Assembly (NCBI GenBank): GCA_040755995.1
Contig: JBFMAF010000026.1
Location: forward strand, 130,360 to 194,359
Direction: 5' to 3'
DNA from: Acidobacteriota bacterium
Lineage (GTDB): Bacteria > Acidobacteriota > CAIWXX01
DNA: 64,000 nucleotides
The position numbers were made by a program, and so were the translations under genes. The notes beneath the pieces were generated by a model. The model made no database searches. It was not told the origin of the DNA and worked only from the letters and a program-made list of their open reading frames with translations. Of the stretch, positions 21,504 through 62,931 are shown one piece after another (position 1 is the first letter of the stretch; every line of letters begins with the position of its first letter).

Positions 21504-21661
21504 GTTCAGAGATTAGCAGCCCAGCGCTTCAGCACGCAAGGCACTCTGCTCAAGATTAACACGATTTAATTCGCTCTTAAGGGTCCTTTCATCCGCGGGT
21601 GTTAGCTTTCAGGTATGAAACCAACCCGGGAAACGTACGAACTCCCCGAGGAGGACGGACG

Positions 21662-22243
21662 ATGGTAGACCAACGAGACATAGTGCTGGAAGCGGGAGCA
21701 AAGCACGACTTCATCGACGAGCTGCTCGCGGTGCCGGGCGGCGAGGCGATACGCGACTGCATCCAATGCGGCACGTGCAGCGGCTCTTGCCCCGTTTCCT
21801 ATTTTATGGACAACACGCCGCGGAAGCTCTTCGCCATGATCCGCGCGGGGCTGCGCGACCGGGTGCTTGAGAGCGCAAGCCTATGGTTGTGCACGTCGTG
21901 CTACACGTGCACCTTGCGCTGCCCAAGGCAGATAGCCGTGACCGACATCATCTACGCGCTCAAGCGGCTCGCGATGAAGGAGGGCAAGGGGGCCGGCGCG
22001 GCGAAGGCAGTGGCGCTGGCCAGCTCGTTCGTCGCCGTCGTCGATCGCCGGGGCCGCAACTATGAGCCCGAGCTGCTGATACGCTACTACCTGAAGACGA
22101 ACCCGGCGGCCTTCGTGAACCAGGCCGGACTGGGCATGAAGCTGCTGGGACGGGGGCGCTTCCCATTGAAGGGTGAGAAGATACACGGCCTCGACCAGAT
22201 CCGCACGATTATCGCCAAGTCGCACGAAATCGGAGGTCTGTGA
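21662..22243 (+). CDS. hdrC: Heterodisulfide reductase subunit C (2x[4Fe-4S])
   Basis: CIQCGTCSGSCP and LWLCTSCYTCTLRCPR; RBS GGAGGA. Confidence 0.9.
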   Translation: MVDQRDIVLEAGAKHDFIDELLAVPGGEAIRDCIQCGTCSGSCPVSYFMDNTPRKLFAMIRAGLRDRVLESASLWLCTSCYTCTLRCPRQIAVTDIIYALKRLAMKEGKGAGAAKAVALASSFVAVVDRRGRNYEPELLIRYYLKTNPAAFVNQAGLGMKLLGRGRFPLKGEKIHGLDQIRTIIAKSHEIGGL

Positions 22244-23148
22244 TGCGTTTCGCATACTACCCGGGCTGCTCGCTGGAGGCAACGGGGCGAGCCTATGAGG
22301 AGTCCACATCGGCGCTTGCCAAGCCGCTGGGTCTCGATCTCAAGGAACTGGACGACTGGAACTGCTGCGGCGCAACATCGTACATGTCGGTGCGCGAGCT
22401 GCTGTCGTACTCGATCTCTGCCAGGAACCTCTGCCTTGCGCAGAAGCAGGGGCTGGATATTGTCGCGCCGTGCTCGGCCTGCTTCACCATCCTGCGGAAG
22501 ACCGATCATTACCTGCAGGAGATGCCCGAGCTGCGAAGAAAGGTGGAGAGTGTTCTGGGAGCTGCCGGCCTGTCCTACACGCCCGGCAGCGTGCGTGTCC
22601 GGCACCTGCTGGAGGTGATGACAGGGAACGGCGGCCTCGGCAAGATCCGCGACCTGGTGCGGAATCCGCTGAAGACTCTCAAGGTCGCTCCGTATTACGG
22701 CTGTCAGATCGTGCGCCCGCGGGTGGATTTCGACGACCCGGAATACCCGATGGTCCTGGACCGGGTGATCGAGGCGATCGGAGCGCAGGCGGTCTACTAT
22801 CCGGTGAAATCGCGCTGCTGCGGGGCGTCACTGATGGCGTCGAACGAACCCGCCGCGATCCGCCTCTGCAAGAACCTGTTGCTTTGTGCCCAGCAGAACG
22901 AGGCCGATTGCATCATCACTGTCTGCCCCCTCTGCCAGATGAACCTGGACGCGTTTCAGAACAAGGTGAACCTGAAGTATGGAACGCGCTTCAACATCCC
23001 TGTTCTTTACTTCACGCAGCTCGTGGGCCTGGCTTTGGGAATGCCGGCCGGGGCCGTGGGAATAGGCCGGGAGATCGTCCCGGCCGCTTCACTGCTGGGC
23101 CGGTACGCCGATACCCCGACGGCCCCAGCATCCGTTGCACACGCATGA
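22243..23148 (+). CDS. hdrB: Heterodisulfide reductase subunit B (two CCG domains)
   Basis: YYPGCS, WNCCG, PCSAC, YYGCQ, CCG, VCPLCQMNLD. Confidence 0.93.
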   Translation: MRFAYYPGCSLEATGRAYEESTSALAKPLGLDLKELDDWNCCGATSYMSVRELLSYSISARNLCLAQKQGLDIVAPCSACFTILRKTDHYLQEMPELRRKVESVLGAAGLSYTPGSVRVRHLLEVMTGNGGLGKIRDLVRNPLKTLKVAPYYGCQIVRPRVDFDDPEYPMVLDRVIEAIGAQAVYYPVKSRCCGASLMASNEPAAIRLCKNLLLCAQQNEADCIITVCPLCQMNLDAFQNKVNLKYGTRFNIPVLYFTQLVGLALGMPAGAVGIGREIVPAASLLGRYADTPTAPASVAHA

Positions 23149-23250
23149 TGAACAAGATCGTCCGCGAGCAGCACCGGCGAAGACAGACCGGATCGCGTGC
23201 GGGCCTCGCGCCCGCTCCAATCTTTCGCACCTGAAGAAGGAGGATAGACC

Positions 23251-24153
23251 ATGGCCGAACCAGGCGATAGCATAGCAGCGAACGAATCCACGATCGGCCA
23301 GGCGACCGACGGTCTCCGTATCGGCGTCTATGTCTGCCACTGCGGGACGAATATATCGGGCAAGGTCGACGTCGAGAACGTCTCGCGATACGCGGCCAAA
23401 CTGCCGGGTGTAGTGATCGCCAGGGACTATAAGTTCTTGTGCTCGGATCCCGGGCAGGATCTCATCATCAAGGACATACAGACATACAAACTCCAGCGCG
23501 TCGTGGTCTCTTCCTGCTCGCCCAGGATGCACGAGCCGACGTTCCGCGGAGCCTGCGGCCGGGCGGAGCTCAATCCGTTTCTGATGACCATGGCAAACAT
23601 CCGCGAACACTGTTCGTGGGTCACCGCAGATCCGACCGCGGCCACGGACAAAGCCAAAGCGCTGATACGAGGAGCAGTTGCGCGCGCGGCCAACCTGGAG
23701 CCTCTGCACGTGCGCGAAGTGCCGGTCGCACCGGCCGTGATGGTCATCGGCGGCGGAATCGCCGGTATCCAGGCGGCCCTGGACGTGGCAAGCGCCGGAA
23801 AGAAGGTCTATCTCGTCGAGAAGGAGCCGAGTATCGGCGGTCACATGGCGCAGTTCGACAAGACCTTCCCGACACTCGACTGCGCCGCCTGCATTCTGAC
23901 GCCCAAGATGGTCAACGTGGGCCAGAACCCGAATATCGAGCTTCTCACGTATAGCGAGGTCGAGGATGTGTCTGGATACATCGGCAACTTCAAGGTGCGC
24001 GTACGCAGGAAGGCCCGGTTCGTAGACGAGGACAAGTGTAACGGTTGCGGCGCGTGCTGGGAGGCCTGTCCCGCCAAACGAGTCCCGGCGACACGGGTGA
24101 TACGCAAGGGGAAGCTCGTCATCGGCCGGACGAAGCTACCCTCTGAAAGCTGA
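23251..24153 (+). CDS. hdrA: Heterodisulfide reductase subunit A, N-terminal half (split gene)
   Basis: IGVYVCHCGTNI, CSDPGQ, SCSPRMHE, NIREHCSW, GGGIAG, FPTLDCAACIL; ends after one CNGCGACWEACP motif. Confidence 0.92.
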   Translation: MAEPGDSIAANESTIGQATDGLRIGVYVCHCGTNISGKVDVENVSRYAAKLPGVVIARDYKFLCSDPGQDLIIKDIQTYKLQRVVVSSCSPRMHEPTFRGACGRAELNPFLMTMANIREHCSWVTADPTAATDKAKALIRGAVARAANLEPLHVREVPVAPAVMVIGGGIAGIQAALDVASAGKKVYLVEKEPSIGGHMAQFDKTFPTLDCAACILTPKMVNVGQNPNIELLTYSEVEDVSGYIGNFKVRVRRKARFVDEDKCNGCGACWEACPAKRVPATRVIRKGKLVIGRTKLPSES

Positions 24154-24189
24154 GTCATCACCAGATGATCCTGTTCACGGGAGCCGAAG

Positions 24190-24525
24190 ATGACGCTCGC
24201 AGACGTACGGGATATCCTGAGGGCGGAAATCCTCTGGGCGAACGATCTTACTACAGTCGTAGAATCGGTCGGGGCCGCCGACCTGATGAGCGACGTGCTG
24301 GCCCTCAGCAGACCGGGCATGCTGCTGCTTTCAGGGCTGCTCAGCGTGCAGACCATACGCACCGCGGCGGTGGCCGATCTGATTGGAGTCGTGTTCGTGC
24401 GCGGGAAGATTCCCGATTCGCAGATCGTCAGGGCGGCCGAGGAGGCCGGGGTGCCAATCATGAGCACAGCCTTCACAATGTTCGAGGCATCAGGCCTGCT
24501 TTACTGCGCGCTGAACCGGCGCTGA
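24190..24525 (+). CDS. DRTGG-domain protein
   Basis: AADLMSDVLA..LLSGL..IRTA..VFVRGK pattern. Confidence 0.85.
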   Translation: MTLADVRDILRAEILWANDLTTVVESVGAADLMSDVLALSRPGMLLLSGLLSVQTIRTAAVADLIGVVFVRGKIPDSQIVRAAEEAGVPIMSTAFTMFEASGLLYCALNRR

Positions 24526-24548
24526 GCAGGCCGCTGTGTGATGCCGGT

Positions 24549-24977
24549 ATGCAGATGGAGGAGTTCGAGCGGAGCTACACGATCACAGGAAGGGACTTCG
24601 TGAACGCAGGTCGGGCCTCTACGGCTGTCAAGGACATTCTCAAGGGAATGGGTGTCAGGGCCGATCTGGTGCGGCGCGCGGCGATTGCCGCATATGAGGC
24701 GGAGATGAACGTAGTGATGTATGCGAGTCGCGGCACAATGACGCTGCACGTGACCCCTTCGCGGCTGTTGATCGAGGTTGATGACGAGGGGCCCGGAATA
24801 GCGGATCTGGAGCTGGCGATGAAGGAGGGCTATTCCACTGCGACCCACGAGATGCGCGAAATGGGATTCGGCGCCGGAATGGGACTGCCGAATATCAAGA
24901 GGAACGCGCATGAGATGAGCATCCAGTCGGTCGTCGGTGTGGGCACGAAGCTCTCCGTTCAAGTGAGATTCGATTAG
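24549..24977 (+). CDS. RsbT/RsbW-like Ser/Thr kinase (anti-sigma regulatory factor, HATPase)
   Basis: AAIAAYEAEMNVV, DEGPGI, GYSTA, GFGAGMGLPNIK. Confidence 0.88.
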   Translation: MQMEEFERSYTITGRDFVNAGRASTAVKDILKGMGVRADLVRRAAIAAYEAEMNVVMYASRGTMTLHVTPSRLLIEVDDEGPGIADLELAMKEGYSTATHEMREMGFGAGMGLPNIKRNAHEMSIQSVVGVGTKLSVQVRFD

Positions 24978-24988
24978 AGGGGCATTCA

Positions 24989-26329
24989 GTGCAGGCTTAC
25001 TATCACTCGATTCGCTTCGACGCGGCCCGTTGCGACGGCTGCATGTCGTGCATGCGCGTCTGCCCCACGCGAGCGGTCCGAATCCGCAAAGGCGGCGCAG
25101 TGATGCTGGAGGATCGCTGCATAGACTGCGGTGAATGCATCAGGTCGTGCACGCGTGGAGCGGTGGTTCCGCTCACTGGAACGCTCGAGGATCTCTCCAG
25201 CTTCACGTACAAGGTGGCAATCCCATCACCGGCTCTCTATGCACAGTTCGATCCGGAAGTGACGCCCGGCATGATACTCGACGCGCTGAAGATCTGCGGG
25301 TTCGATGATGCAGTGAGTCTGTCGGCTTCCTGCGATGCCGTGGCGGCTGCCACTGAGCTGTTTCTCGACGAGTATCGCGGCCAGTATCCGTTGATATCCT
25401 CGTTCTGCCCGTCGGTAGTGCGGCTTATCCAGGTGCAGTACCCGGACCTGGTGGAGCAGCTGCTGCCCATATTGACTCCAAGGGAAATAGCCGCGCGGGA
25501 AGCCAAGGTGAAGAAGGAAGTGGATAGCGGCATCGACACGGAGCGAATCGGTGCCGTGTACATCACCCCCTGCCCCGCCAAGATGGTATCGATTGTCGAC
25601 CACCCGGGAATGGACAGATCCTACCTCGACTCTGCCGTCTCCATAAGAGACCTGTACCAGATCCTCGCCGCAGCCCTGGCGCAGAGCCAGGAACGCAAAG
25701 ATCGCGCAGGCGATGGCGAGACTGCGTCGGGCATTGCATGGGCCTATCTTGGAGCGTTGCCGATGTCGGTGCCCGCGGAGAACAGCATGTCCGTTGCCGG
25801 GCTTCCGAATGTAATCCGGATTCTGGACGACATAGAGAAGGGCCGGCTGCGAAGGTATTCGTTCGTTGAGTGTCACGCATGTCCTGAGGGGTGTGTCAGC
25901 GGCCCGCTGACCATCGAAAACCCTTACGTAGCGAGGGCCAGAGCGATCAGACTGTCCGGATCGCTGGAGAGGGCGGAGGCGGCCAGGAGTGAGCAGATTC
26001 TCCGGCTCTACCGTGAAGGTGCGTTCCTGATGAAACAGACGATCGGCGCCCGGCCGCACAAGCCGCTGGACACCGACATATCGCGCGCAATCGCCAAGAT
26101 GAAGGAAAAGGACCGGATCCGCGCCGGGCTGCCTGGGATTGACTGCGGGGCATGCGGTGCGCCGACGTGCGAGGCGTTTGCCGAGGACCTTGTCGAAGGA
26201 GAAACCGAAGCAGCCTCTTGTGTGTTCGTGCGCCAGCAACAGGTCAGCGAACTTGTCGAGAGGCTGGGCGTGCTTCTGAAGATCCATTCAGGCAGCGGCG
26301 AACGGCCGTCTGTGGGAGTACAGCAATGA
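24989..26329 (+). CDS. [FeFe]-hydrogenase-like Fe-S protein with degenerate H-cluster motifs (putative sensor)
   Basis: N-terminal 2x[4Fe-4S]; SSFCPS, TPCPAK, ECHACPEGCVSG; C-terminal DCGACGAPTC..C Fe-S domain. Confidence 0.82.
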   Translation: MQAYYHSIRFDAARCDGCMSCMRVCPTRAVRIRKGGAVMLEDRCIDCGECIRSCTRGAVVPLTGTLEDLSSFTYKVAIPSPALYAQFDPEVTPGMILDALKICGFDDAVSLSASCDAVAAATELFLDEYRGQYPLISSFCPSVVRLIQVQYPDLVEQLLPILTPREIAAREAKVKKEVDSGIDTERIGAVYITPCPAKMVSIVDHPGMDRSYLDSAVSIRDLYQILAAALAQSQERKDRAGDGETASGIAWAYLGALPMSVPAENSMSVAGLPNVIRILDDIEKGRLRRYSFVECHACPEGCVSGPLTIENPYVARARAIRLSGSLERAEAARSEQILRLYREGAFLMKQTIGARPHKPLDTDISRAIAKMKEKDRIRAGLPGIDCGACGAPTCEAFAEDLVEGETEAASCVFVRQQQVSELVERLGVLLKIHSGSGERPSVGVQQ

Positions 26330-26676
26330 GGGTTGCCGACATTGCACCCATGTTGAACGGAACAATCGTCGGCGGCATCGAAGCTGCGGACAAGGAAGCC
26401 AACGGGGGCTATGTTTCTGATCTACTCTCGGACGTCATGGGCAACGCCAATGCAGGCGACGTCTGGGTGACAATCCAGAAGCACGTGAACACGATCGCAG
26501 TCGCGCATCTCCGGGATATCGCCGCAATCGTGCTGGCGAACGGGAGGCAACCGGAGGACGAGACGGTGCGGCGGGCCGCAGAGGAACAGGTGCCCGTCAT
26601 CCTCACCCAGCTGCCGGTCTTCGACGTAGCTGGAATTCTGTACGGGGTGGGTTTGCGCGGGGGGAGGAAGCCCTGA
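26326..26676 (+). CDS. DRTGG-domain protein
   Basis: GGYVSDLLSDVMGNA..VWVTIQKHVNTIAVA; ATGA overlap. Confidence 0.85.
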   Translation: MRVADIAPMLNGTIVGGIEAADKEANGGYVSDLLSDVMGNANAGDVWVTIQKHVNTIAVAHLRDIAAIVLANGRQPEDETVRRAAEEQVPVILTQLPVFDVAGILYGVGLRGGRKP

Positions 26677-26678
26677 AG

Positions 26679-28040
26679 GTGTTTACACTGGACACGCATA
26701 TGCACACTTGCCTCTCCCCGTGTGCAGATCTGGACATGCACCCGACTGCCATCGTCGCCACGGCGATACAGGCCGGACTGGACGGCATCGTGGTGTGCGA
26801 CCATAACTCGGCCGAGAACCTGGCTGCGGTCCAGCGGGCCGGGCAACGGGTGGGGCTCTCCGTTCTGGCTGGGATGGAGATTGCGAGCGCCGAAGAGGTT
26901 CATGTGGTGGCACTGCTGCCTGACCTCGAAGCTGCTCTGAAATTGCAACGGCGGGTCTACGCGGAGCTGCCCGGTAAGAATGACGAAGAGGCGTTCGGGA
27001 TGCAGGTTGTAGCCGGTGAAGACGGCGAGGTGCTCGGCTTCAATCAGCGTCTCCTGATCGGCGCTACCACCATGAGCGTCGAGGAAGTCGTCGCGGCAAT
27101 CCACGATGCCGGTGGAGTCGCAGTGGCGGCGCACGTCGATCGCGAAGGTTTCGGGATCATCGGTCAGCTCGGCATGATACCCCCCGGGCTGGCGCTGGAC
27201 GCACTGGAGGTCTCGAGGCTCACGCCGCTGTCCGTCGCCCGCCTGAAGTACGTTCCTTCGGGCGAGCTCCCGCTGCTCTGCGGCTCGGATGCCCACGAAC
27301 CGAAGTTCGTCGGAACAGCGGTGACCTTCATGCTGCTGCAGGAACCGACTTTTGCCGAAGTGAATGCGGCCCTCGCGGAGAAGAGCGGCAGGACGGTTCT
27401 TGGTGGAGGCAGGCCGATGGAAGATCTTTCAATGCACATCCTCGACATCGCGCAGAATTCGATCGAGGCCGGAGCCTCTTCCGTCGAGATCAGCCTCGTC
27501 GAAGACATTGCGCGCGACCTGCTCGAGATCGAAGTGCGCGACGACGGGAAGGGCATGGACCCTGAGACGATCGCGAAGGTCGCCGACCCCTTCTTCACCA
27601 CGAGAACGACACGAAAGGTGGGGATGGGTCTGGCGTTCCTCGCACAGGCCGCGCAGGCTGCGGGCGGCGAGTTGTCAATCAAGTCGGAACCCGGGCAGGG
27701 GACTCGCGTGAAAGCGTCCTTCGGCCTGAGTCACATAGACCGCGCGCCGATCGGAGACGTCGAGACTACGCTGATGGTGCTTCTGGCAGGACACGACAAC
27801 GTCGATCTCACGTTCAGGCATTCAATCGGCGGGCGGGAGTTCTCGCTGTGTACGGCGGATCTGAAGGAGGCCGCCGGGGGTGGACCGCTTTCCACACCGG
27901 CGGGTCTCGCGCTGCTCCGGCAGGCCATTCGCCTCGGCGAGTCATCCTTGCGCGAGCCGGATCCGGCGAGGCAGACCCGGCGACCAGGAAATCAGACGGC
28001 GGCTTCACTGGAGGTCAACAATGAATATCGAGACCGGTAG
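26679..28040 (+). CDS. PHP-domain phosphoesterase fused to a HATPase (histidine-kinase-like) domain
   Basis: DTHMHTCLSPC, CDHNS, AHVDR, GSDAH, followed in frame by MEDLSMHILDIAQNS..DDGKGM..DPFFTTR..GMGL. Confidence 0.85.
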   Translation: MFTLDTHMHTCLSPCADLDMHPTAIVATAIQAGLDGIVVCDHNSAENLAAVQRAGQRVGLSVLAGMEIASAEEVHVVALLPDLEAALKLQRRVYAELPGKNDEEAFGMQVVAGEDGEVLGFNQRLLIGATTMSVEEVVAAIHDAGGVAVAAHVDREGFGIIGQLGMIPPGLALDALEVSRLTPLSVARLKYVPSGELPLLCGSDAHEPKFVGTAVTFMLLQEPTFAEVNAALAEKSGRTVLGGGRPMEDLSMHILDIAQNSIEAGASSVEISLVEDIARDLLEIEVRDDGKGMDPETIAKVADPFFTTRTTRKVGMGLAFLAQAAQAAGGELSIKSEPGQGTRVKASFGLSHIDRAPIGDVETTLMVLLAGHDNVDLTFRHSIGGREFSLCTADLKEAAGGGPLSTPAGLALLRQAIRLGESSLREPDPARQTRRPGNQTAASLEVNNEYRDR

Positions 28041-28518
28041 GGTCAGCGAGATCGCAATGCGGCATGGGAGGAGGCGGGAGCACATCATTGCTATCCTGCT
28101 GGATTGCCAGGAGGAGTTCCTGCACTTGCCCAGGCAGGTAATCGAAACGGTGGCCAAGGACGTCGGCGCTCCTGTTTCGACCGTCCTCGGCATCGCCACG
28201 TTCTTCAGGGCTTTCAGCCTCAAGCCGGTGGGGCGCTACCCGATTCATGTTTGCATGGGCACGGCCTGCCACGTGCAGGGCGCTCCGAGGCTGTTGGAGG
28301 CGCTGGAGAGGGAGATTGGCGTGAAGAGGGGCGAGACCACGTCGGACATGGCATTCAACCTCGACACCGTCAACTGCCTCGGCTGCTGCGGTCTGGCTCC
28401 AGTGATCAACGTCGGCAAGGATGTTCACGGCAAGCTCAAGCAGTCGGCCATACCACGTCTCGTCAAGACGTATCGGGCCAAGTTTGCCAGGGAGGCGGAG
28501 GTGAAGGGCCATGCCTAA
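28021..28518 (+). CDS. nuoE: NuoE/HydC-like [2Fe-2S] subunit
   Basis: VCMGTACHVQG and VNCLGCCGLAPV. Confidence 0.92.
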   Translation: MNIETGRVSEIAMRHGRRREHIIAILLDCQEEFLHLPRQVIETVAKDVGAPVSTVLGIATFFRAFSLKPVGRYPIHVCMGTACHVQGAPRLLEALEREIGVKRGETTSDMAFNLDTVNCLGCCGLAPVINVGKDVHGKLKQSAIPRLVKTYRAKFAREAEVKGHA

Positions 28519-28894
28519 ACTCACGATCGAGGATCTGAAGAGGATCAGCGAGCAGGCCAAAGCCACGATGACACTCCGCTCGGGCACCGCCCGCGCAAAG
28601 GTGACCGTCCACATGGGAACGTGCGGGATCTCGGCAGGAGCGCGCGAGGTGATGGCGGCGCTGTTGAAGGAGATCGAGACGGGCGGAGTGACCGATGTAC
28701 TGGTAGGCACTTCGGGTTGTGCAGGGTTATGCAGTCGCGAACCGATGGCGACTGTCGAGATCCGGGGCCAGCCGCCGGTGAAGTACGTGGACCTCTCGCC
28801 TGAGAAGATGGGCCAGGTATTCCGGAAACACGTCATGGGCGGGACGATCTTGATGGAGTACGCGCTGGCAGCGGGGAGCGAAACGACCGGTTGA
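28511..28894 (+). CDS. Thioredoxin-like [2Fe-2S] ferredoxin (HydD/HndB-like)
   Basis: VHMGTCGISAGA, SGCAGLCSREP. Confidence 0.85.
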   Translation: MPKLTIEDLKRISEQAKATMTLRSGTARAKVTVHMGTCGISAGAREVMAALLKEIETGGVTDVLVGTSGCAGLCSREPMATVEIRGQPPVKYVDLSPEKMGQVFRKHVMGGTILMEYALAAGSETTG

Positions 28895-28913
28895 CGGCCG
28901 GGGAGGAGTGCAT

Positions 28914-30737
28914 ATGGCATACCGTACACACGTTCTGATTTGTGGCGGAACGGGATGCGTCTCGAGCGGCTCGTTCGAATTGCGCGGCGTCTTCACGGCC
29001 GAACTGCAGAAACAGGGTCTCGCCAAGGAAGTGCAGGTCATCATCACGGGGTGCCAGGGATTCTGCGCCGAGGGGCCGATCATGATCGTGCAACCGGACG
29101 GGGTCTTCTATTGCGGCGTCCAGAAGAAGGACATACCCAACCTGGTCACCGAACACCTGCTGAAAGGCCGGCCGGTGAAGAAGCTGATGTATACGCCGCC
29201 GGTCGAGAAGGTGCCGATCCCGGCGCTCAAGGACATCCCGTTCTTCGCGAAGCAACGGCTGGTGGTCTTGCGCAACCGCGGGTTGATCGATCCGGAGCGG
29301 ATTGACGACTACATCGCCGTAGGCGGCTACACCGCCCTGGTCAAGGCGCTTACGGAGATGACGCCGGAAGATATCATTTCCGAGATCAAGAGGTCTGGTC
29401 TGAGAGGCCGCGGTGGAGGCGGATTCCCGGCGGGCATCAAATGGGAAACATGCCGGCGCGCGGCGCAGAAGCGCGGGGTAGCGCCGGTGGTGGTCTGCAA
29501 CGCCGATGAGGGCGATCCCGGCGCCTTCATGGACCGCAGCATCATCGAATGCGACCCGCATTCGGTGGTGGAGGGGATGATCATCGGCGCATCCGCCATC
29601 GGCTGCAGTGAAGGGTTCGTCTACATCCGCCACGAGTACCCCATCGCGCGCGAGCGGTTGCTGAAGGCGCTGGAACAGGCCCGCGACTACGGGCTGCTGG
29701 GCAACGACATCCTGGGCACGGGACTGAACTTCGACATCGAAATCGTCCAGGGGGCCGGCGCCTTCGTCTGCGGAGAGTCCACTGCGCTCATGGCGTCGCT
29801 CGAGGGCAAGATCGGCGAGCCGAGGGCCAAGTACATCCATACGGTGGAGTACGGTTACAAGAACCAGCCCACGAATCTCAACAACGTGGAGACCTGGGCG
29901 AATGTGCCCTTGATCGTGAATCGCGGGGCGGGCTGGTTCTCGTCGATGGGGACCGGGGACGTGGCTGAGAATCCGTGGGGCGGGAGCAGCGGGACGAAGG
30001 TGTTCTCGCTGGTCGGCAAGGTCAACAACACCGGGTTGATAGAAGTCCCCATGGGGATCTCATTGCGCGAGATCATCTTCGATATCGGCGGAGGCATTCC
30101 GGGAGGCAGGGAGTTCAAGGCTGTGCAGACGGGTGGTCCCTCCGGCGGCTGCCTCCCGAGCTCGCTGCTGGACATGCCCGTCGATTTCGACAGCCTCACC
30201 GAAGCGGGCTCCATGATGGGCTCCGGCGGCATGATCGTGATGGATGACCACACGTGCATGGTGGATGTCGCGAGGTACTTCATCAACTTCCTCACGGAGG
30301 AATCCTGCGGCAAGTGCATACCCTGTCGCGAGGGACTGCGGCATTCCCTTCGGATACTCAACAACATCAGCGACGGAAACGGGCGGCCGGAAGACGTGGA
30401 TCTCTTGCAGGAAATGGGCGAGGTGATGCAGGACAGCTGCCTGTGCGCGCTGGGCACTTCGGCTCCAAACCCCGTCCTCTCCACCCTCCGCTACTTCAAG
30501 GGCGAGTACGAAGCGCACATCAAGGACCACAGGTGTCCGGGGGGCGTCTGCAAGGCGCTGGTTGAATACTCGATCGATCAGCAGTTGTGCGACGGCTGCC
30601 ACGCCTGCGTGCCTGCCTGTTCGACGCAGGCGATCACCGGCAAGGTCAAAGAGAAGCACACTCTGGACAAGACGAAGTGCATCAAGTGCGGCGCCTGTAT
30701 TGAGGTTTGCAAGCGCGAAGCCGTACTGCGGGTCTAG
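28914..30737 (+). CDS. nuoF: NuoF/HydB-like FMN/NAD(H) subunit with N-terminal [2Fe-2S] and C-terminal 2x[4Fe-4S] domains
   Basis: GLRGRGGGGFP, NADEGDPGAFMDR, FVCGESTAL, GGPSGG, ESCGKCIPCREG, CALG, two C-terminal CxxCxxC motifs. Confidence 0.95.
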   Translation: MAYRTHVLICGGTGCVSSGSFELRGVFTAELQKQGLAKEVQVIITGCQGFCAEGPIMIVQPDGVFYCGVQKKDIPNLVTEHLLKGRPVKKLMYTPPVEKVPIPALKDIPFFAKQRLVVLRNRGLIDPERIDDYIAVGGYTALVKALTEMTPEDIISEIKRSGLRGRGGGGFPAGIKWETCRRAAQKRGVAPVVVCNADEGDPGAFMDRSIIECDPHSVVEGMIIGASAIGCSEGFVYIRHEYPIARERLLKALEQARDYGLLGNDILGTGLNFDIEIVQGAGAFVCGESTALMASLEGKIGEPRAKYIHTVEYGYKNQPTNLNNVETWANVPLIVNRGAGWFSSMGTGDVAENPWGGSSGTKVFSLVGKVNNTGLIEVPMGISLREIIFDIGGGIPGGREFKAVQTGGPSGGCLPSSLLDMPVDFDSLTEAGSMMGSGGMIVMDDHTCMVDVARYFINFLTEESCGKCIPCREGLRHSLRILNNISDGNGRPEDVDLLQEMGEVMQDSCLCALGTSAPNPVLSTLRYFKGEYEAHIKDHRCPGGVCKALVEYSIDQQLCDGCHACVPACSTQAITGKVKEKHTLDKTKCIKCGACIEVCKREAVLRV

Positions 30738-30757
30738 GGCTCACGGAGGAGTTGGCC

Positions 30758-32506
30758 ATGAAAGTAGTGAAGCTGAAAGTCGATGGCGTCGAGACTGAAG
30801 CCGAAGACCGAACATCGCTTCTGACGGTTACCAAGAAGCTCGGCATCAAGGTCCCGACCTTGTGCTACCACCCGATCATCGAGCCTGCAGGCGTCTGCCG
30901 GATCTGCACGGTGGAGGTTCGGATGCGCAATCGGGTCCGATTGGTGACAGCGTGCAACTACCCCGTGAGCGAAGGGATCGAGGTGTTGACGAATTCCGAG
31001 CGTGTCCGCCGGACCCGCAGGCTGATCATTGAATGGCTGCTTTCCCGCTGCGGGAACGTCAAGGTGTTGAACGATCTTGCGGCCGAATATGGGATCACGG
31101 AGCCGAGGTTCGGACGGGGCGATGAGGACTGCATCCTGTGCGGCCTCTGCGTGCGCGTCTGTTCGGATGTCGTCGGCAGGCACGTCCTGGGCTTCTTCAA
31201 CCGCGGCACTACTCGCGAAGTCAACACACCGTACGGCGAGACTAGCGAGGAGTGCATTGCGTGCGGGGCCTGCGCATACGTCTGCCCGACCGGATGCATC
31301 ACGATCCAGGATGAGGAGAAGCTGGTGCGGCAGGAGCTGCCGATGGGCCCGATCACTCCAATATCCATCCCATTCATGCAGGCGGTCCCCGCAGTGCCCG
31401 TCATCGACAAGGCGAGCTGCGTCTACTTCAAGACCGGTGGATGCCAGGTGTGCAAGTCGGTTTGCGAGAAACAGGCCATCGAACACACCGCTGATGACAA
31501 GCTTGTCGAATTCGAAGTCGGCAGCATCATCGCCGCCACCGGTTTCCAGTCAATGGATCCGACCAGACTCTCACAGTACGGATACGGCCGGCTTGGAAAC
31601 GTGTTCACGGCGCTGGAATTCGAGAAGCTGAACAACGCGTCGGGGCCGACTGGCGGAAGGATCCTGATGGCCGACGGCAGGGCTCCGGAGAGCGTGGCGC
31701 TGCTGCACTGCGTCGGCAGCCGCGACAAGAACTACCACGAATACTGTTCGCGCGTCTGCTGCATGATGGCCCTCAAGTATGCCCACCTCATTCACGAGAA
31801 AACCGGGGCGGCCGTCTACGATTTCTTCATCGATCTCCGCTGCTTCGGCAAGGGCTACGAGGAGTTCTACAACCGGCTGCTCGAAGAGGGGGTCTTCTTC
31901 ATCCGGGGTCGAGCCGGTGAGGTTTCTGACTTCGCGATCTATGAAGAAGAGCGGGGGAAGCTCATCGTTCGGTGCGAAGACACGCTCATCGGCGTCGTGC
32001 GGCGGATCCCGGTGGACATGGTCGTCCTCATGACCGCTCTGGAACCGGCGAATGACGCCAACAATGTTGCGAGGCTGCTGAACATCTCGTGCAGCAAAGA
32101 CAGTTTCTTCCTGGAACAGCATCCGAAACTGGCGCCCGTGGCCACACCGACCGACGGCGTGTTCATCGCCGGAGCCTGCCAGGGTCCTAAGGACATCCCG
32201 GACGCGGTCGCGCAAGCCTCCGCCGCCGCCTCGGCGGCCATCTCGCTGTCCGTCCGTGGAAGAGTCGAGATCGAACCGGTTACCTGTGTGGTGGATGGCG
32301 AGCGGTGCGCTGCATGCCGTATATGCAACACGCTCTGCCCGTTCACAGCCATCAGCTTCGACATCGAGAAAGATGCGTCCGTCATCAACGACGCGCTGTG
32401 CAAGGGGTGCGGCACCTGCGCGGCGGCCTGCCCGAGCAGCGCAATCACCGCGCGGCATTTCAACGACCGGCAGCTGCTCAACGAAATCGCGGGGGTGTGT
32501 GCATGA
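30758..32506 (+). CDS. hdrA: Fusion of a HydA/NuoG-type N-terminal Fe-S arm ([2Fe-2S]+2x[4Fe-4S]) with the HdrA C-terminal half
   Basis: PTLCYH..GVCRICTVE..LVTAC; CILCGLCVRVC; CIACGACAYVCP; then IPFMQAVP, VGSIIAATGF, NASGPTGG, CVGSRD..YCSRVCC, GKGYEEFY, GACQGPKDI, C-terminal ferredoxin. Confidence 0.9.
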   Translation: MKVVKLKVDGVETEAEDRTSLLTVTKKLGIKVPTLCYHPIIEPAGVCRICTVEVRMRNRVRLVTACNYPVSEGIEVLTNSERVRRTRRLIIEWLLSRCGNVKVLNDLAAEYGITEPRFGRGDEDCILCGLCVRVCSDVVGRHVLGFFNRGTTREVNTPYGETSEECIACGACAYVCPTGCITIQDEEKLVRQELPMGPITPISIPFMQAVPAVPVIDKASCVYFKTGGCQVCKSVCEKQAIEHTADDKLVEFEVGSIIAATGFQSMDPTRLSQYGYGRLGNVFTALEFEKLNNASGPTGGRILMADGRAPESVALLHCVGSRDKNYHEYCSRVCCMMALKYAHLIHEKTGAAVYDFFIDLRCFGKGYEEFYNRLLEEGVFFIRGRAGEVSDFAIYEEERGKLIVRCEDTLIGVVRRIPVDMVVLMTALEPANDANNVARLLNISCSKDSFFLEQHPKLAPVATPTDGVFIAGACQGPKDIPDAVAQASAAASAAISLSVRGRVEIEPVTCVVDGERCAACRICNTLCPFTAISFDIEKDASVINDALCKGCGTCAAACPSSAITARHFNDRQLLNEIAGVCA

Positions 32507-32931
32507 GCTTCGAACCGAAGATCGTGGGAATCCTGTGCAACTGGTGCTCCTACACCGGCGCAGACCTGGCGGGCACCGCCAGGATCCAGTACGCGCCCAA
32601 CGTTCGAGTGGTCCGCGTGATGTGTTCCGGCCGCGTCGACCCGTCCTTCGTGCTGAAGGCGCTCCAGTGCGGCGCCGACGGGGTCCTGATCGCCGGCTGC
32701 CACCTTGGCGACTGCCACTATCAGTCGGGCAACTACAAGACGATGCGCCGCTTCGCGCTGATGAAGCGCGTGCTCGCTCAGCTGGGCGTCGAGCCCGACA
32801 GGGTGCGGCTGGAATGGGTCAGCGCATCGGAAGGTGAGCGCTGGGCGGCGGTCGTCAACGACATGACCGAGAAGGTGCGCGCCCTGGGCCCATTCACCTC
32901 GGGCGACGGCAACAACGCGTTGGGGGCCTGA
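32503..32931 (+). CDS. mvhD: MvhD [2Fe-2S] hydrogenase/Hdr linker subunit
   Basis: CNWCSYTGADLAG, RVMCSGRVD, GCHLGDCHY, WVSASEG. Confidence 0.95.
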   Translation: MSFEPKIVGILCNWCSYTGADLAGTARIQYAPNVRVVRVMCSGRVDPSFVLKALQCGADGVLIAGCHLGDCHYQSGNYKTMRRFALMKRVLAQLGVEPDRVRLEWVSASEGERWAAVVNDMTEKVRALGPFTSGDGNNALGA

Positions 32932-32953
32932 CCCGATGGACGGCACGAGCACC

Positions 32954-33002
32954 GCGAACCGTGAACCAGGAACCGGGAACCTTGAACCGGGAACCTTGAA
33001 CC
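32954..33002. repeat. Heptamer tandem repeat (NNGAACC)x7
   Basis: gcgaacc gtgaacc aggaacc gggaacc ttgaacc gggaacc ttgaacc. Confidence 0.85.
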
Positions 33003-33027
33003 GATGTAGAGGCAGGGAGGTGTTCCC

Positions 33028-33996
33028 ATGGGCAAACTGAAACTCGCGCTTTACTGGGCCGGAGCCTGCGGAGGCTGCGACGTCTCCGTGCTGGACACCA
33101 ACGAGCGAATTCTAAAGATCGCCGAGCTGGCCGATCTGTTGCTCTGGCCGATCGCCCTGGACTTCAAGTATCACCACATCGAAGCGCTCCCCGACGAGCA
33201 CATCGACGTCTGCCTTTTCAACGGAGCAATTCGCAATTCGGAGAACGAACACCTCGCGAAGCTGCTGCGGCAGAAGTCGAAGGTGATGGTCGCGTACGGA
33301 TCGTGCGCGCACCTGGGCGGCATCCCCGGGCTGGCGAATTTCTCCACGCGGAGAGACATCCTCCATCACGTCTACATGGACAGCGCCTCGACTGTGAATC
33401 CCGGGGGCACAGTTCCACTGGAGAAGACCGCCCTTCCCATCGGGGACCTCGAGCTGCCGAAGTTCCACTATGAGGTGCACTCCCTCGACCAGGTCGTTCC
33501 CGTCGACTACTACCTTCCCGGCTGCCCGCCCGCTGTGGACCAGGTCTGGGCGGCGATCGAGGCCATTGCCACGGACAAGTTGCCCGCGGCGGGATCGGTG
33601 GTGGGCGCTGACCAGGTGGCGCTTTGCGACAAATGCACGAGAAAGAAGTCCGAGAAGCGGATAAAAGAGTTCAAATCGATCGCCCAGGTGATTCCGGACC
33701 CGGAGATCTGCTTCCTCGAACAGGGCATCGTCTGCTGCGGTCCCGCGACTCGAGCGGGATGCGGCGCCCCCTGCATCAATGCCAACATGCCGTGTCGCGG
33801 CTGCTACGGCCCGGCACCGGACGTGCCGGACATGGGCGGAAAGCTGCTGTCGGCGATCGCGTCGGTGATCGATTCGGATGATCCGGCTGAGATCGACCGC
33901 ATCGTGGCTCAGATCGAGGACCCGGCGGGGACGTTCTACCGGTTCAGCCTGCCGAGCTCGCTCCTCTCCGGCACGCAACAGAAGGAGGCCGCATGA
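33028..33996 (+). CDS. mvhG: Group 3c [NiFe]-hydrogenase small subunit
   Basis: ACGGCD, YGSCAHLGG, LPGCPP, CFLEQG..CCGPATRAGC..C..PCRGCYG. Confidence 0.93.
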   Translation: MGKLKLALYWAGACGGCDVSVLDTNERILKIAELADLLLWPIALDFKYHHIEALPDEHIDVCLFNGAIRNSENEHLAKLLRQKSKVMVAYGSCAHLGGIPGLANFSTRRDILHHVYMDSASTVNPGGTVPLEKTALPIGDLELPKFHYEVHSLDQVVPVDYYLPGCPPAVDQVWAAIEAIATDKLPAAGSVVGADQVALCDKCTRKKSEKRIKEFKSIAQVIPDPEICFLEQGIVCCGPATRAGCGAPCINANMPCRGCYGPAPDVPDMGGKLLSAIASVIDSDDPAEIDRIVAQIEDPAGTFYRFSLPSSLLSGTQQKEAA

Positions 33997-35453
33997 AACG
34001 CATCACGATCGATCCCATCACACGCCTCGAGGGGCACGGCAAGATCGAGATCTTCCTGGACGATACCGGAGAGGTCGCGGATGTGTACTTCCAGGTGCCC
34101 GAGCTGCGCGGATTCGAGAAGTTCTGCCAGGGACGGCCCGTGTGGGAATTGGCTTCGATTGTTCCCAAGATCTGCGGCGTCTGCCCGGGGGCTCATCACC
34201 TGGCCGCGGGCAAGGCGATCGATGCCGTTTACAAAGTGGATCCGCCGCCCGCGGCGAAGAAGCTGCGGGAGCTCTTCTACTCTGCCCACTACGTGCACAG
34301 CCACATTGCGCACTTCTACGCCCTGGCGGCGCCCGACTTCGTCGTCGGCCCGACGGCCGATCCCGCTCAGCGCAACATCCTCGGCGTTGTGGCGAAAGTC
34401 GGGCTCGAGCTCGGTGGCGCCGTGATCGCCCACCGCAAGATGGCCCAGGAGATTCAAGCCACGCTGGCCGGCCATCAGACCCACACGCGATGGTGCGTCC
34501 CAGGCGGAGTGAGCAGGGGAATAACCGAAGCGCAACGCCTCGAAGTCGTCGAAAAAGCGATCTCGTGTCTCGAGTTCGCCAAGACCTCGATAAAGATCTT
34601 TGACGACGTCGTCCTGAAGAACAAGGAGTACGTCGACCTGATCCTCTCCGATGCCTACTCGCTCACCACGCACTACATGGGACTGGTGGACGACAACAAC
34701 AGGGTGAACTTCTACGACGGCAAGGTCCGAGTCGTCGACACGGCCGGAAAGGAGATCGTCAAGTACGCTCCCGCCGAGTACCTGAATCATGTCGGCGAGC
34801 ACGTGGAAACCTGGTCATACTTGAAGTTCCCATTCCTGAAGGCGAAGGGCTGGAAGGGGTTGGTGGACGGGCAGGACTCCGGCGTCTACCGGGCTGCGCC
34901 GCTCGCGCGGCTCAATGCCGCCGACGGAATGGCCACACCGCTCGCTCAGCAGGAGTACGACAAGTTCTTCCAGACACTCGGCGGCAAGCCGGTTCACGCT
35001 ACGCTCGCTCAACACTGGGCTCGAATCGTCGAGCTTGCGTATGCCTCGGAGCGGCTGCTGGAACTGGCGAATGACCCGGAGGTGGCAAGTCCAAACGTCC
35101 GCTGCCTGCCACAGGCGACACCGCACGAGGGGGTCGGGATCGTCGAGGCGCCCAGAGGCACGCTGACCCATCACTACGTCACCGACGAGCGTGGAATGAC
35201 GACGAACGTGAACCTGATCGTCGGCACCACCAACAACCACGCTCCGATCTGCATGTCGATCAAGAAGGCGGCCAAAGGCCTGATCAAACGCGGGAAGGAG
35301 ATCACGGAGGGGACGCTCAACATGATCGAGATGGCCTTCCGCGCATACGACCCGTGCTTCTCATGCGCCACGCACAGTCTGCCCGGCCGCCTGCCTTTCG
35401 AGGTTGTCGTGCGGGAGCCGGATGGCTCGATTGCGCATGTCGCAAAGAGATAA
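33993..35453 (+). CDS. mvhA: Group 3c [NiFe]-hydrogenase large subunit
   Basis: TRLEGHG, L1 KICGVC, EAPRGTL.HHY, L2 RAYDPCFSCATH plus a cleavable C-terminal extension. Confidence 0.93.
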   Translation: MKRITIDPITRLEGHGKIEIFLDDTGEVADVYFQVPELRGFEKFCQGRPVWELASIVPKICGVCPGAHHLAAGKAIDAVYKVDPPPAAKKLRELFYSAHYVHSHIAHFYALAAPDFVVGPTADPAQRNILGVVAKVGLELGGAVIAHRKMAQEIQATLAGHQTHTRWCVPGGVSRGITEAQRLEVVEKAISCLEFAKTSIKIFDDVVLKNKEYVDLILSDAYSLTTHYMGLVDDNNRVNFYDGKVRVVDTAGKEIVKYAPAEYLNHVGEHVETWSYLKFPFLKAKGWKGLVDGQDSGVYRAAPLARLNAADGMATPLAQQEYDKFFQTLGGKPVHATLAQHWARIVELAYASERLLELANDPEVASPNVRCLPQATPHEGVGIVEAPRGTLTHHYVTDERGMTTNVNLIVGTTNNHAPICMSIKKAAKGLIKRGKEITEGTLNMIEMAFRAYDPCFSCATHSLPGRLPFEVVVREPDGSIAHVAKR

Positions 35454-35466
35454 GCCGGACGCGACC

Positions 35467-35570
35467 CGGAGAATCGGAGAAACGGAGAACCGGGGAAACG
35501 GAGAACCGGCGAAGCGGGGAAACGGAGAAATGGAGAACCCGGGAAACGGAGACGGGGAAACGGGGAAACA
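35467..35570. repeat. Octamer tandem repeat (CGGRGAAN) x about 13
   Basis: cggagaat cggagaaa cggagaac cggggaaa cggagaac cggcgaag cggggaaa ... Confidence 0.85.
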
Positions 35571-35640
35571 GTGACAGGGCGAACGAACGCGGATGATGGC
35601 GTGCATCACGCGAGGGCGGTGTTGCCGGCGCCGGGCGGCA

Positions 35641-35673
35641 CTGTCAACTGCCGACCGGCAACTGACAACTGCT
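35641..35673. repeat. Heptamer array (CTGACAA-like)
   Basis: ctgtcaa ctgccga ccggcaa ctgacaa ctgct. Confidence 0.65.
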
Positions 35674-35681
35674 AGACTCCC

Positions 35682-36233
35682 ATGCAAGAGCGTGTACTGG
35701 TCCTGGGGCTTGGGAATCCGATACTGACGGATGATGCGGTCGGATTGCTGGTCGCGCGCGAGGTTCGGCAGCGGATCGGCTCAGGTGTCCACGTCGCCGA
35801 AGCGTCGGTCGCCGGTTTCGATCTGATCGAGGCGTTCTCGGGATACGATCGTGTGATCGTGATCGACTCGATCCGGACGCCCGGCGGCAGCCCCGGTGCA
35901 GTGTATCTCCTCGCTTCTGAGGACCTGCCAGCCACCGAACGCCTCACCGGGGCTCACGAGATCGACCTGGCTACGGCAATCGCCTTGGGGCGCAGGCTGG
36001 GCCTGCACATGCCGCACACGGTCCGCATCGTGGCCGTCGAGGTCCAGGACAACCGAACGTTCGGCGAATCGTGCACTCCGGAGGTCGCACGCTCGATCGA
36101 CTCGGCTGTGGAGCTCGTCCTGGATGAGATTCTCTTCAAGAGTCGTCGACTAATCCGCTCGCGGATCGAAACATGCAATCGGGGCGCCATATCAGCCCTG
36201 CAAAGAAGGGAGGTCGAAAGTGCCCGCCCCTGA
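35682..36233 (+). CDS. [NiFe]-hydrogenase maturation endopeptidase (HyaD/HybD type)
   Basis: VLGLGNPILTDDAVG, VIVIDS, AHEIDL. Confidence 0.9.
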   Translation: MQERVLVLGLGNPILTDDAVGLLVAREVRQRIGSGVHVAEASVAGFDLIEAFSGYDRVIVIDSIRTPGGSPGAVYLLASEDLPATERLTGAHEIDLATAIALGRRLGLHMPHTVRIVAVEVQDNRTFGESCTPEVARSIDSAVELVLDEILFKSRRLIRSRIETCNRGAISALQRREVESARP

Positions 36234-37257
36234 ACACCTGAAGATCTTCGAAACAGCAGCCGAGGTGCTCAACTCTCCGGCGGAAGTGCCGGAGATGCTT
36301 CGGGCCATCTCGAACGCGATCGCCCGCGGCATGTCCATCAAAGGATGCCAGTTCTTCCTGCTGAGCCGGGACCAGCGGGTGCTGGAGCCGATTGCTTCAT
36401 CAGGGTTGAGCGAGGCGTTCGCGAACCAGGAGTCGGTGGAGATGAATCGCATGCTGCGCGAGATCCTGCAAGGCCAGCCGGTCTCCGTGCGCGACTGCAC
36501 TACCGATCCCCGTATCCATCGCTCGCTGGCCTATAGCGTCGAGGGCATCCGATCGACGCTCTGGATACCGTTGAAGAGCCGCGGGCAGGTCATCGGAGCG
36601 ATGCAGCTGACGACCGCGGATGTGCACGAGTTTTCGGAAGAGGAGATCGAGGTCGCGCGCGTCGTCGCGGCCGTCTGCGCCAGTCTCATCCTGCGGTCGA
36701 TGTTCCAGAGGATCGTGAGCGGCGTGTCTGACACAGTGCGTCATTCGTTGGACGTCGACGAGGTGCTCAAGCGGATCGTCCGCGTGATCACCGAGGACCT
36801 TCGCGCCAAAGGCTGCCTCATCCGGCTGATCGACCCGGACACGAATCGTCTTGAGCTGCGCGCGGCCTACGGCCTCAGCGAAGCCTACCTGCAGAGCGGC
36901 CCGCGCGACGCCGCGAAAGCAACGGCGGAGGTGCTGGAGGGTAAGCCGGTGTTCTTCCTCGACGCCGGGCAGTATCTGCAGTACGCGGAAGATGCAAGAC
37001 GCGAGGGCATCGCATCGCTGCTGAGCGTGCCGTTGATGATCCACGGCAAGTCAATCGGCGTGCTGCGAGTCTACACGTACAAGCCGTACGAGTTCTCGGA
37101 GGAGGAGATCCATCTGATGAAGATGGTGGCCGAGCAGTGCGCGTTGCTCATCAAGAACGCGCAGCTCTACAGCGGCATGAAAGAGCGGTACCAGCAGCTG
37201 ATCGGCGATTTCCACGAGTGGTTCGACCGCTTCTACGGGCCGGGAGGTATGAGGTAG
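36220..37257 (+). CDS. Tandem GAF-domain protein with no output domain
   Basis: Two repeats of KGC..L..L..A..GLSE..EGI.S.L.VPL..G..IG.. Confidence 0.88.
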   Translation: MPAPEHLKIFETAAEVLNSPAEVPEMLRAISNAIARGMSIKGCQFFLLSRDQRVLEPIASSGLSEAFANQESVEMNRMLREILQGQPVSVRDCTTDPRIHRSLAYSVEGIRSTLWIPLKSRGQVIGAMQLTTADVHEFSEEEIEVARVVAAVCASLILRSMFQRIVSGVSDTVRHSLDVDEVLKRIVRVITEDLRAKGCLIRLIDPDTNRLELRAAYGLSEAYLQSGPRDAAKATAEVLEGKPVFFLDAGQYLQYAEDARREGIASLLSVPLMIHGKSIGVLRVYTYKPYEFSEEEIHLMKMVAEQCALLIKNAQLYSGMKERYQQLIGDFHEWFDRFYGPGGMR

Positions 37258-37260
37258 CCC

Positions 37261-45255: not shown

Positions 45256-45258
45256 GGG

Positions 45259-47879: not shown

Positions 47880-47931
47880 GAGAGATGGAACTGATCGGCA
47901 CCGAACCGGGCACATCTCGCGAGGAGAGGCG

Positions 47932-48444: not shown

Positions 48445-48451
48445 GGGAACG

Positions 48452-49114: not shown

Positions 49115-49145
49115 CAGTTGTCAGTCGTCGGTTGTCGGTTGGCGG
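49114..49145. repeat. Heptamer array (CRGTTGT-like)
   Basis: cagttgt cagtcgt cggttgt cggttgg. Confidence 0.7.
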
Positions 49146-49175
49146 ACACGGCAGCCTCTCAGGGGAGACGACGTG

Positions 49176-62707: not shown

Positions 62708-62931
62708 CCCAGATTCTCCATGCATGACTCAACCAGGTCCAAACCCGACTTCCAACAACTGCGACAAGCGATCATCATGCCCAAGCTTCTTCACACGCCG
62801 ACACTAACATGGGTGCACGACCCACGCAAGCTTAGACGCCCCGAGGAGCGAGTCGGTTTAGCCTCGGATGGTCGGATCGCACTGCACTGACGCCGCGTTT
62901 GCTGCTGACCTGCGCCCGCCAAGATGCAGCG

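Follow-up and report, generated by a model that had tools for sequence, protein, structure and literature searches.

A two-chain HdrA with a BfuA-type domain fused at its inserted ferredoxin: a candidate Hdr-Bfu enzyme in an Acidobacteriota bacterium

An Acidobacteriota bacterium (assembly GCA_040755995.1, contig JBFMAF010000026.1, positions 130,360 to 194,359 of the forward strand) carries hdrA in two separate pieces within a stretch of 64,000 nucleotides, referred to here as the window and numbered from its first letter. The break lies inside the inserted ferredoxin of HdrA, between the two cysteine motifs of this domain. The locus raises the question of whether it is an interrupted gene or an HdrA working as two chains, and what the genes between the pieces contribute. 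The split and the fusion of its second piece to a BfuA/NuoG-type domain are real, conserved, and widespread. Judged from the sequence, the insertion is a functional graft at the electron-exit domain of HdrA and not a spacer, the C-terminal half being fused to BfuA itself.

Two pieces of one HdrA

The N-half ends with CNGCGACWEACP followed by a 26-residue tail and a TGA stop at 24151-24153, and it aligns to residues 5-258 of the structurally characterized HdrA 5ODC_A (E 2.7e-102). The second open reading frame (ORF) (30758-32506, 582 residues) resumes HdrA at ISIPFMQAVP (residue 202, nucleotide 31361), and this part aligns to 5ODC from about residue 266-274 to residue 649. The core segments of HdrA are present across both halves; only the loop of ~8-15 residues between the ferredoxin motifs differs from the solved structure, having been replaced. 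The original prediction of an hdrA split at these coordinates, with a gap of 6.6 kb (ORF to ORF) holding eight genes, is borne out by the ORF list, Pfam, and the 5ODC alignment, and the motifs that it named (CHCG, GGGIAG, DCAAC, CVGSRD/YCSRVCC, and GKGYEE) are all found in the halves. Its description of the halves as complementary is supported: apart from the replaced loop, they tile 5ODC and a natural single-chain relative (locus L012, 64% and 59% identity). The C-half does resume HdrA from motif 2 on but is not a free ORF, lying behind the BfuA/NuoG-type domain. The tail, described as short and foreign to HdrA, is present but is itself conserved across the N-half family, with P279, R282, and G287 kept in 120, 119, and 114 of 120 listed homologues, a set ranked on the N-half/tail region and biased towards such tails.

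The five-domain set of type I HdrA, which comprises an N-terminal Fe-S domain, a thioredoxin-reductase FAD domain with Fe-S, the inserted ferredoxin, and the C-terminal ferredoxin, is complete only when the two chains are summed. The single polypeptide that characterizes this type is interrupted by the stop codon and eight intervening genes, and each half alone scores far below the NCBIfam HdrA cut-offs. Residues E356 and K409 are named as the bifurcation residues of HdrA (PMC12054007). Their equivalents E289 and K340 lie in the C-part and are kept in 119 of the 120 homologues listed. Because the dinucleotide-binding fold is located on the N-half and the E356/K409 equivalents on the fusion protein, a working flavin site would, given the known fold, need both chains.

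The first ~185 residues of the fusion protein form a BfuA/NuoG/HydA-type N-terminal domain with two extra CxxCxxCxxxC motifs. The best short match of this domain is WorA, a subunit of bifurcating WorABCSL (9MQX_A, E 4e-39; identified as WorA via PMC12318220), and the predicted domain superimposes on WorA over 181 columns, the root mean square deviation being 1.7. The HxxxCxxC cluster motif is missing here and is found in none of the 120 listed fusion homologues. The domain fits the A1-A2-A4 cluster pattern, a known BfuA type (PMC9304861). In the predicted model of the fusion, the BfuA domain reaches predicted local distance difference test values (pLDDT) of 79-95, compared to 42-78 for the region of the lone HdrA motif 2 and a low-confidence 42-61 for the linker. 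These values suggest pairing among the BfuA motifs themselves, with motif 2 left lacking a partner in the single chain.

Both lone HdrA motifs are nearly invariant, the BfuA motifs lie in a folded domain of their own, and the orphan HdrA half is modeled with low confidence by itself; the clusters of the inserted ferredoxin are likely ligated across the two chains. The three motifs standing in a row in the fusion, and a phmmer alignment placing BfuA motif 2 at HdrA motif 1, could instead be taken to mean that the lone motifs pair with the BfuA motifs or hold single clusters or zinc. Such an arrangement is very improbable, as BfuA residues 1-180 are confidently predicted to form a closed domain like that of WorA, all 59 N-pieces seen in related loci retain motif 1, and in the natural single-chain proteins of L007 and L012 the same two motifs are directly joined. 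Tail type in the N-half and linker type in the fusion occur together (26 versus 33 loci, with 4 of the 26 judged by eye), an association that is not used as proof of contact, being confounded by shared descent.

Table 1. Features of the split hdrA locus and its operon (window coordinates)
Feature	Position	Strand	Remarks
hdrC, 2x[4Fe-4S]	21599..22243	+	Pfam Fer4_8/9/17; upstream of hdrB-hdrA_N in many relatives
hdrB, disulfide-reducing subunit	22240..23148	+	Pfam CCG, two stretches
HdrA N-half	23251..24153	+	300 residues: N-terminal Fe-S domain, GGGIAG FAD-binding fold, DCAAC, ferredoxin motif 1, 26-residue tail
Lone ferredoxin motif 1 (C263, C266, C269, C273)	24037..24069	+	each Cys in 120/120 listed N-half homologues
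Basic tail replacing inter-motif loop	24070..24150	+	conserved
DRTGG protein, accessory	24190..24525	+	Pfam; missing from the gap in most relative loci
HATPase_c (anti-sigma/Ser-Thr kinase-like) accessory protein	24549..24977	+	Pfam
Fe-S protein, Fe_hyd_lg_C fold	24989..26329	+	below [FeFe]-hydrogenase family cut-offs; likely regulatory
Second DRTGG protein	26326..26676	+	Pfam
PHP + HATPase_c	26679..28040	+	one ORF here; two separate ORFs in most relatives
bfuC/nuoE, thioredoxin-like 2Fe-2S	28021..28518	+	PF01257, E 3e-44
Small thioredoxin-like ferredoxin	28511..28894	+	no Pfam match; resembles N-terminal domain of NuoF homologues
bfuB, full-length HydB-type FMN/NADH subunit	28914..30737	+	N-terminal 2Fe-2S, B1, B2 site, C-terminal 2x[4Fe-4S]
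BfuA/NuoG-type domain of fusion	30758..31306	+	2Fe-2S and two 4Fe-4S motifs, no HxxxCxxC cluster motif
Linker from BfuA to HdrA ferredoxin	31307..31360	+	about 18 residues
HdrA C-part	31361..32506	+	lone motif 2, rest of thioredoxin-reductase domain, CVGSRD/YCSRVCC, C-terminal ferredoxin
Lone ferredoxin motif 2 (C221, C229, C232, C236)	31418-31465	+	Cys in 119-120/120 listed homologues
mvhD	32503..32931	+	PF02662, E 4e-56
mvhG, [NiFe] small subunit	33028..33996	+	Pfam
mvhA, [NiFe] large subunit	33993..35453	+	closest family VhuA
Hydrogenase maturation protease	35682..36233	+	PF01750

Recurrence, selection, and history of the split

Related loci (168, designated by L numbers) were chosen by query, so that the counts are not a prevalence. 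The breakpoint predicted to recur does so: the junction is found in 89 of the 168 loci, all 89 with motif 2. The N-piece is visible in 59 of the 89, the remaining 30 having at most 7.2 kb of DNA upstream. It is fused to NuoE/BfuC in 14 of these 59 loci, and the N-half is thereby linked to the Bfu core. At least 98% of fusion residues 1-300, the junction region, is covered in 117 of the 120 listed homologues, and the N-half forms a family of its own, with 120 members among the matches listed, all carrying motif 1 and tails of 21-55 residues. The gene order of the window recurs in 5 of 120 sampled relatives (118 from the same phylum, 2 from the same family); the two same-family genomes show no match at E 1e-40. 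Among 400 genomes of Thermodesulfobacteriota, the phylum of L023, at least 15 contain a junction-spanning match. What is conserved in the gap is a nuoE-nuoF core of about 2-2.5 kb; the accessory genes are inside, upstream, or missing.

A long, double HdrA is cut at the same point as the short one, and this long split form is present in a named species, Desulfatitalea alkaliphila (P0345). Further long forms with the same split point occur at L119:7050-15763 and in L097, L101, L113, L115, L118, L120, L125, and L129. N-pieces of the L119 type comprise ~130-150 residues, with an in-frame stop at the DCxxC position that is likely selenocysteine; mvhD is often similarly interrupted in these loci, and a Flx/AsrA-like gene follows in L119.

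In relatives, purifying selection acts on both halves. Across 7 pairs of the N-half, the ratio of nonsynonymous to synonymous substitution rates (dN/dS) is 0.05-0.16, and across 9 pairs of the fusion it is 0.07-0.17; these values are slightly high, having been calculated on stop-to-stop ORFs that include some leader codons. The relaxation expected of a dying gene is absent from these relatives, the window's own pair being saturated. Around both lone motifs, the nonsynonymous proportion of differences (pN) is well below the synonymous one (pS) in most pairs. Other HdrA-like genes of the genome (13 matches) might cover the function of a dead interrupted gene, but death or misassembly is extremely improbable in view of the identical gene order in five other genomes, the intact junction region in relatives, and dN/dS at or below 0.17. 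Misassembly and pseudogene were both rejected by recurrence and selection.

The history of the cassette is less simple than one insertion. Split and intact hdrA are intermingled in the trees of the C-part and the N-part, and a single clade of split forms is rejected by the approximately unbiased test for the C-part (p-AU 1.9e-56, 22 versus 20 rows) and for the N-part (p-AU 3.6e-8, 24 versus 20 rows). The rows (42 of 113 C-parts and 44 N-parts) were picked once a first tree of 113 had been seen, and resolution in the N-part tree is weak. A single origin of the split HdrA arms was discarded on these tests of both parts. L140 stands beside the intact L071/L047 in both trees, the intact L007 groups with the split L002/L006, and the BfuA parts of L008, L100, L112, L133, L134, and L140 form one group (0.90) while their HdrA arms are scattered. 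L007:9293-11287 and L012:9236-11254 encode single-chain HdrA in hdrCBA-mvhDGA operons, with a lengthened inter-motif loop made of tail-like and linker-like pieces. These two are likely re-fusions after loss of the cassette, to judge from their sequences; a structure prediction of L007 made without an alignment (pLDDT 43) was uninformative. As a single insertion event misfits, the trees point to repeated exchange and re-fusion, and they suggest that the cassette moves between hdrA copies by recombination, with independent insertions as a possible alternative to transfer.

The Bfu core and the proposed electron path

The window BfuB (best match 7T2R_B, E 4e-229) is accompanied by BfuC and contains the FMN site and clusters B1, B3, B4, and B5. 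It carries A/M, GGPSG, the His, three of the four B2 cysteines, and both C-terminal motifs; the Losey markers A/E232, M234, and GGPSG are present, and four of the five B2 ligands (C438, C476/T, H525, C531, and C536) are found. An F sits in the GAGAFVCGE loop, and the applied numbering offset does not place it at marker position 367. Among BfuB homologues from junction loci, His is kept in 66/66, M in 62/66, and GGPSG in 65/66. The identification of the cassette as an [FeFe] "hyd operon" was rejected, with no [FeFe] catalytic subunit in the cassette, the C-terminal part of HdrA in place of the H-domain, and the HydG maturase not found in the 99.8% complete genome. Because HydG was not found, the cassette is, on sequence grounds, a Bfu core and not an [FeFe] hydrogenase. 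The earlier idea of a hyd-type operon inserted into hdrA and then domesticated is supported as far as a domesticated cassette of hyd/bfu type goes; it is corrected by the lack of an [FeFe] subunit in the cassette, by HydG not being found, and by the misfit of a single insertion to the trees.

The MvhAGD-HdrABC gene set (hdrB, hdrC, mvhD, mvhG, and mvhA with NiFe motifs) is complete at the locus. On balance, the locus probably encodes one enzyme: a NiFe-hydrogenase/Hdr set with a two-chain HdrA, the second chain of which follows BfuA, and a Bfu module on the low-potential exit of HdrA. The two HdrA chains would have to pair because the flavin adenine dinucleotide (FAD) domain and both inserted-ferredoxin clusters need residues of each. 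Electrons from H2 would enter by MvhAG and MvhD. At the FAD of HdrA, the high-potential electron would pass to HdrCB, with a disulfide or carrier as acceptor, and the low-potential electron to the inserted ferredoxin, which is the electron exit of HdrA and the docking site of FmdF/MvhB (PMC12350162). This electron would not leave to free ferredoxin but travel through BfuA clusters A4-A2-A1 to BfuBC; in WorABC, clusters A4-A2-A1 of WorA feed a BfuBC-type core (PMC12318220). A second split at BfuBC between NAD+ and ferredoxin would place two bifurcation centers in series, with the net reaction 4 H2 + 2 RSSR + NAD+ + 2 Fd(ox) -> 4 RSH + NADH + 2 Fd(red), where Fd is ferredoxin. With potentials of E = -140, -280, and -500 mV (PMC9304861) and an assumed -140 mV acceptor, the computed H2 threshold for ferredoxin reduction would fall from about 68 Pa to about 1 Pa.

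Several observations weigh against this enzyme. The C476 position is Ser in the window BfuB, compared to C in 32, T in 24, S in 6, and V in 4 of the 66 homologues, and 20 of these 66 fail a regular expression for the two terminal motifs, many of them by eye having longer spacing or an appended domain. In L004:9003-11752 and L146:9120-11764 the halves are neighbors, their open frames lying 111 and 9 bp apart, and bfuBC is missing from between them; several bfuB homologues are located elsewhere in the L004 genome. Many junction loci contain Fdh or Flx-like genes, or none, in place of MvhAG, so H2 as the donor is not general. The dN/dS ratio is saturated for the window and its nearest locus, L080, as it is for L090-L092. 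The ~18-residue linker does not fix the place where BfuA docks, and in class II benzoyl-CoA reductase (BCRII) the Bfu module feeds the input side of HdrA (bioRxiv 10.64898/2026.04.10.717634).

BCRII offers the only solved connection of Bfu to HdrA (I3 to E1/E2; bioRxiv 10.64898/2026.04.10.717634). A corresponding wiring, left room by the low confidence of the modeled linker, would place the tethered BfuA on the C-terminal ferredoxin/MvhD input of HdrA, with electrons from NADH and ferredoxin as the alternative to H2 and the repaired inserted ferredoxin reducing an outside acceptor. This is unlikely here: the input side is normally taken by MvhAG, and mvhG/mvhA follow the fusion in this and many relative loci. 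Moreover, the fusion point lies in the exit domain in 89/89 loci, with NuoE fused to the other side of the cut in 14.

The wiring at the exit could also run in the opposite direction. Bfu would then confurcate electrons from NADH and reduced ferredoxin and deliver them to the inserted ferredoxin of HdrA, and at the FAD they would meet electrons from a thiol or carrier on HdrB; the H2 or formate released would serve as a sink in fermentation or syntrophy. Reversibility is known for both modules (PMC9304861), the Bfu of BCRII is a confurcating input (bioRxiv 10.64898/2026.04.10.717634), and the same arithmetic permits H2 release under about 1 Pa. Operation in this sense would require very low H2, however, and a separate cluster for an H2-evolving hydrogenase lies nearby (41790-50696, a run of Hyf/group 4-like membrane-bound hydrogenase genes recognized by eye from translations); this direction is rather unlikely.

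The Bfu-like module might also have ceased to bifurcate and serve as an NAD(H) port only, the multisubunit equivalent of the GltD insertion in type III HdrA/HdrL, which provides a precedent (PMC12054007). The Ser at the C476 position, a truncated nuoF in L117, and the two loci lacking bfuBC in the gap would agree with such a port. It is nevertheless quite unlikely, given the retention of His, M, GGPSG, and the ferredoxin-binding C-terminal motifs and the fact that about two thirds of BfuB sequences carry Thr in place of C476 (PMC9304861).

If the enzyme is as proposed, with Bfu on the exit side of HdrA, it may tentatively be extended to a widespread, undescribed double-bifurcating "Hdr-Bfu" class, an extension that falls short of probable. 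Here, bfuCBA would act as a plug-in cassette between the arms of hdrA, moved between short and long hdrA paralogues by homologous recombination and lost by re-fusion. A cross-chain 2x[4Fe-4S] ferredoxin would connect the modules, and ferredoxin would be reduced at ~1 Pa H2 with NAD+ as the second high-potential sink.

Related systems, neighboring genes, and significance

The MvhAGD-HdrABC complex of methanogens (5ODC, 8RVU), in which H2 drives the joint reduction of CoM-S-S-CoB and ferredoxin, shares with this locus six subunit types, the HdrA domain set, the E356/K409 equivalents, and the cysteine motifs. It differs in its one-chain HdrA and in the docking of free ferredoxin, FmdF, or MvhB at the inserted ferredoxin, which here bears a covalent BfuA. 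BCRII, Bam[(BC)2DEFGHI]2, resembles the proposed enzyme, known here from its genes, in combining HydBC/Bfu and HdrA modules in series in one complex and in its short BfuA with three clusters (bioRxiv 10.64898/2026.04.10.717634). In BCRII, BamI is a separate chain leading to the C-terminal ferredoxin/BamF input and the inserted ferredoxin leads to BamBC, whereas the present locus has a split HdrA with BfuA fused into its inserted ferredoxin, and MvhAG and HdrBC as partners. None of the BCRII markers (BamB tungsten subunit, fused BamD, double BamE, and long BamF) is found in 21599-39168, the range to which the BamB search was limited.

An in-frame GltD insertion in the inserted ferredoxin is known for type III HdrA/HdrL, likewise an NAD-linked module at this site and sometimes accompanied by mvhADG (PMC12054007). 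In contrast to the split form, these proteins are one chain without a Bfu core, the single domain being inserted at the start of motif 2. The GltD insertion, seen in L053 and L047, lies about 35 residues downstream of the breakpoint described here, and Pfam finds no GltD domain in either half. Bfu Type 1/2 enzymes with A1, A2, and A4 only (F420-Bfu, Wor-Bfu, and Bam-Bfu; PMC9304861, PMC12318220) have the same BfuBC core, no A3, and a third-substrate domain after A4; here, the place of that domain is taken by two thirds of HdrA, for which a second chain is required. No Hdr-fused Bfu type is contained in the classification text of PMC9304861 or in one of its supplementary files, Supplementary Table 1 possibly lying outside these. 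In Desulfotignum phosphitoxidans, nuoEFG, hdrA, and mvhD are likewise co-located, the accessible text of that report describing no split or fusion (PMC4046663).

Other fusions of the BfuA domain were seen among the loci. In L085:6649-7959 (-), L086, L087, and L167 the same domain is fused to a Cys-rich segment and a GcvH-like domain, a type not listed in the accessible Bfu classification (PMC9304861), and in L157:7689-9128 and L164:9959-11401 it is fused to FrhB, the described F420-Bfu.

Next to the fusion, mvhD is the next recognized gene in 52 of the 89 junction loci, with another 29 ending before any such gene. The first NiFe motif of the window MvhA has Lys, compared to Arg in 20 and Ser in 2 of 23 motifs counted. 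Downstream, 37261-41072 encodes an FdhA-like molybdopterin protein that by eye has no metal-binding Cys/Sec; next come Fer4_22 and NAD-binding (Flx/Asr-like) genes, and the group could give the same Hdr an additional NAD(P)H arm. Within the gap, the small ferredoxin at 28511..28894 is presumably of the HydD type. DRTGG, PHP, and kinase genes are linked to hyd operons; a literature search on these genes found no paper. A promoter and terminator scan of 21300-36500 gave chance level (1 versus 2.9; 8 versus 9.3). Elsewhere in the genome there are 12 further N-half matches (G000 C4, C8, C18, C20, C29, C34, and C43), some with an in-frame TGA or TAG. The window also holds tandem near-duplicate genes with long identical stretches at 57470-59860 and 60296-62725, by eye encoding an LptD-like outer-membrane protein.

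The split-fusion design is apparently undescribed and built from known modules. No description of a split hdrA, an HdrA-NuoG fusion, or an Hdr-Bfu design was found in the literature searched, most subscription papers lying outside it, among them the HdrA review by Appel et al. 2021, which may list the architecture. According to a 2026 preprint, no complex containing two bifurcation modules was on record before BCRII (bioRxiv 10.64898/2026.04.10.717634). The present locus points to a second, common way of chaining such modules, with Bfu placed at the exit, among anaerobes from sediment and the subsurface that belong to several phyla. If true, a much lower H2 threshold for the formation of reduced ferredoxin is predicted for these organisms. 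In databases both halves are labeled just "HdrA," "FAD-dependent oxidoreductase," or "4Fe-4S protein," and metabolic reconstructions therefore miss the Hdr-Bfu link. HdrA engineering could draw on the natural split point and fusion site of this locus, and Desulfatitalea alkaliphila, as a named carrier of the long form, provides an experimental handle.

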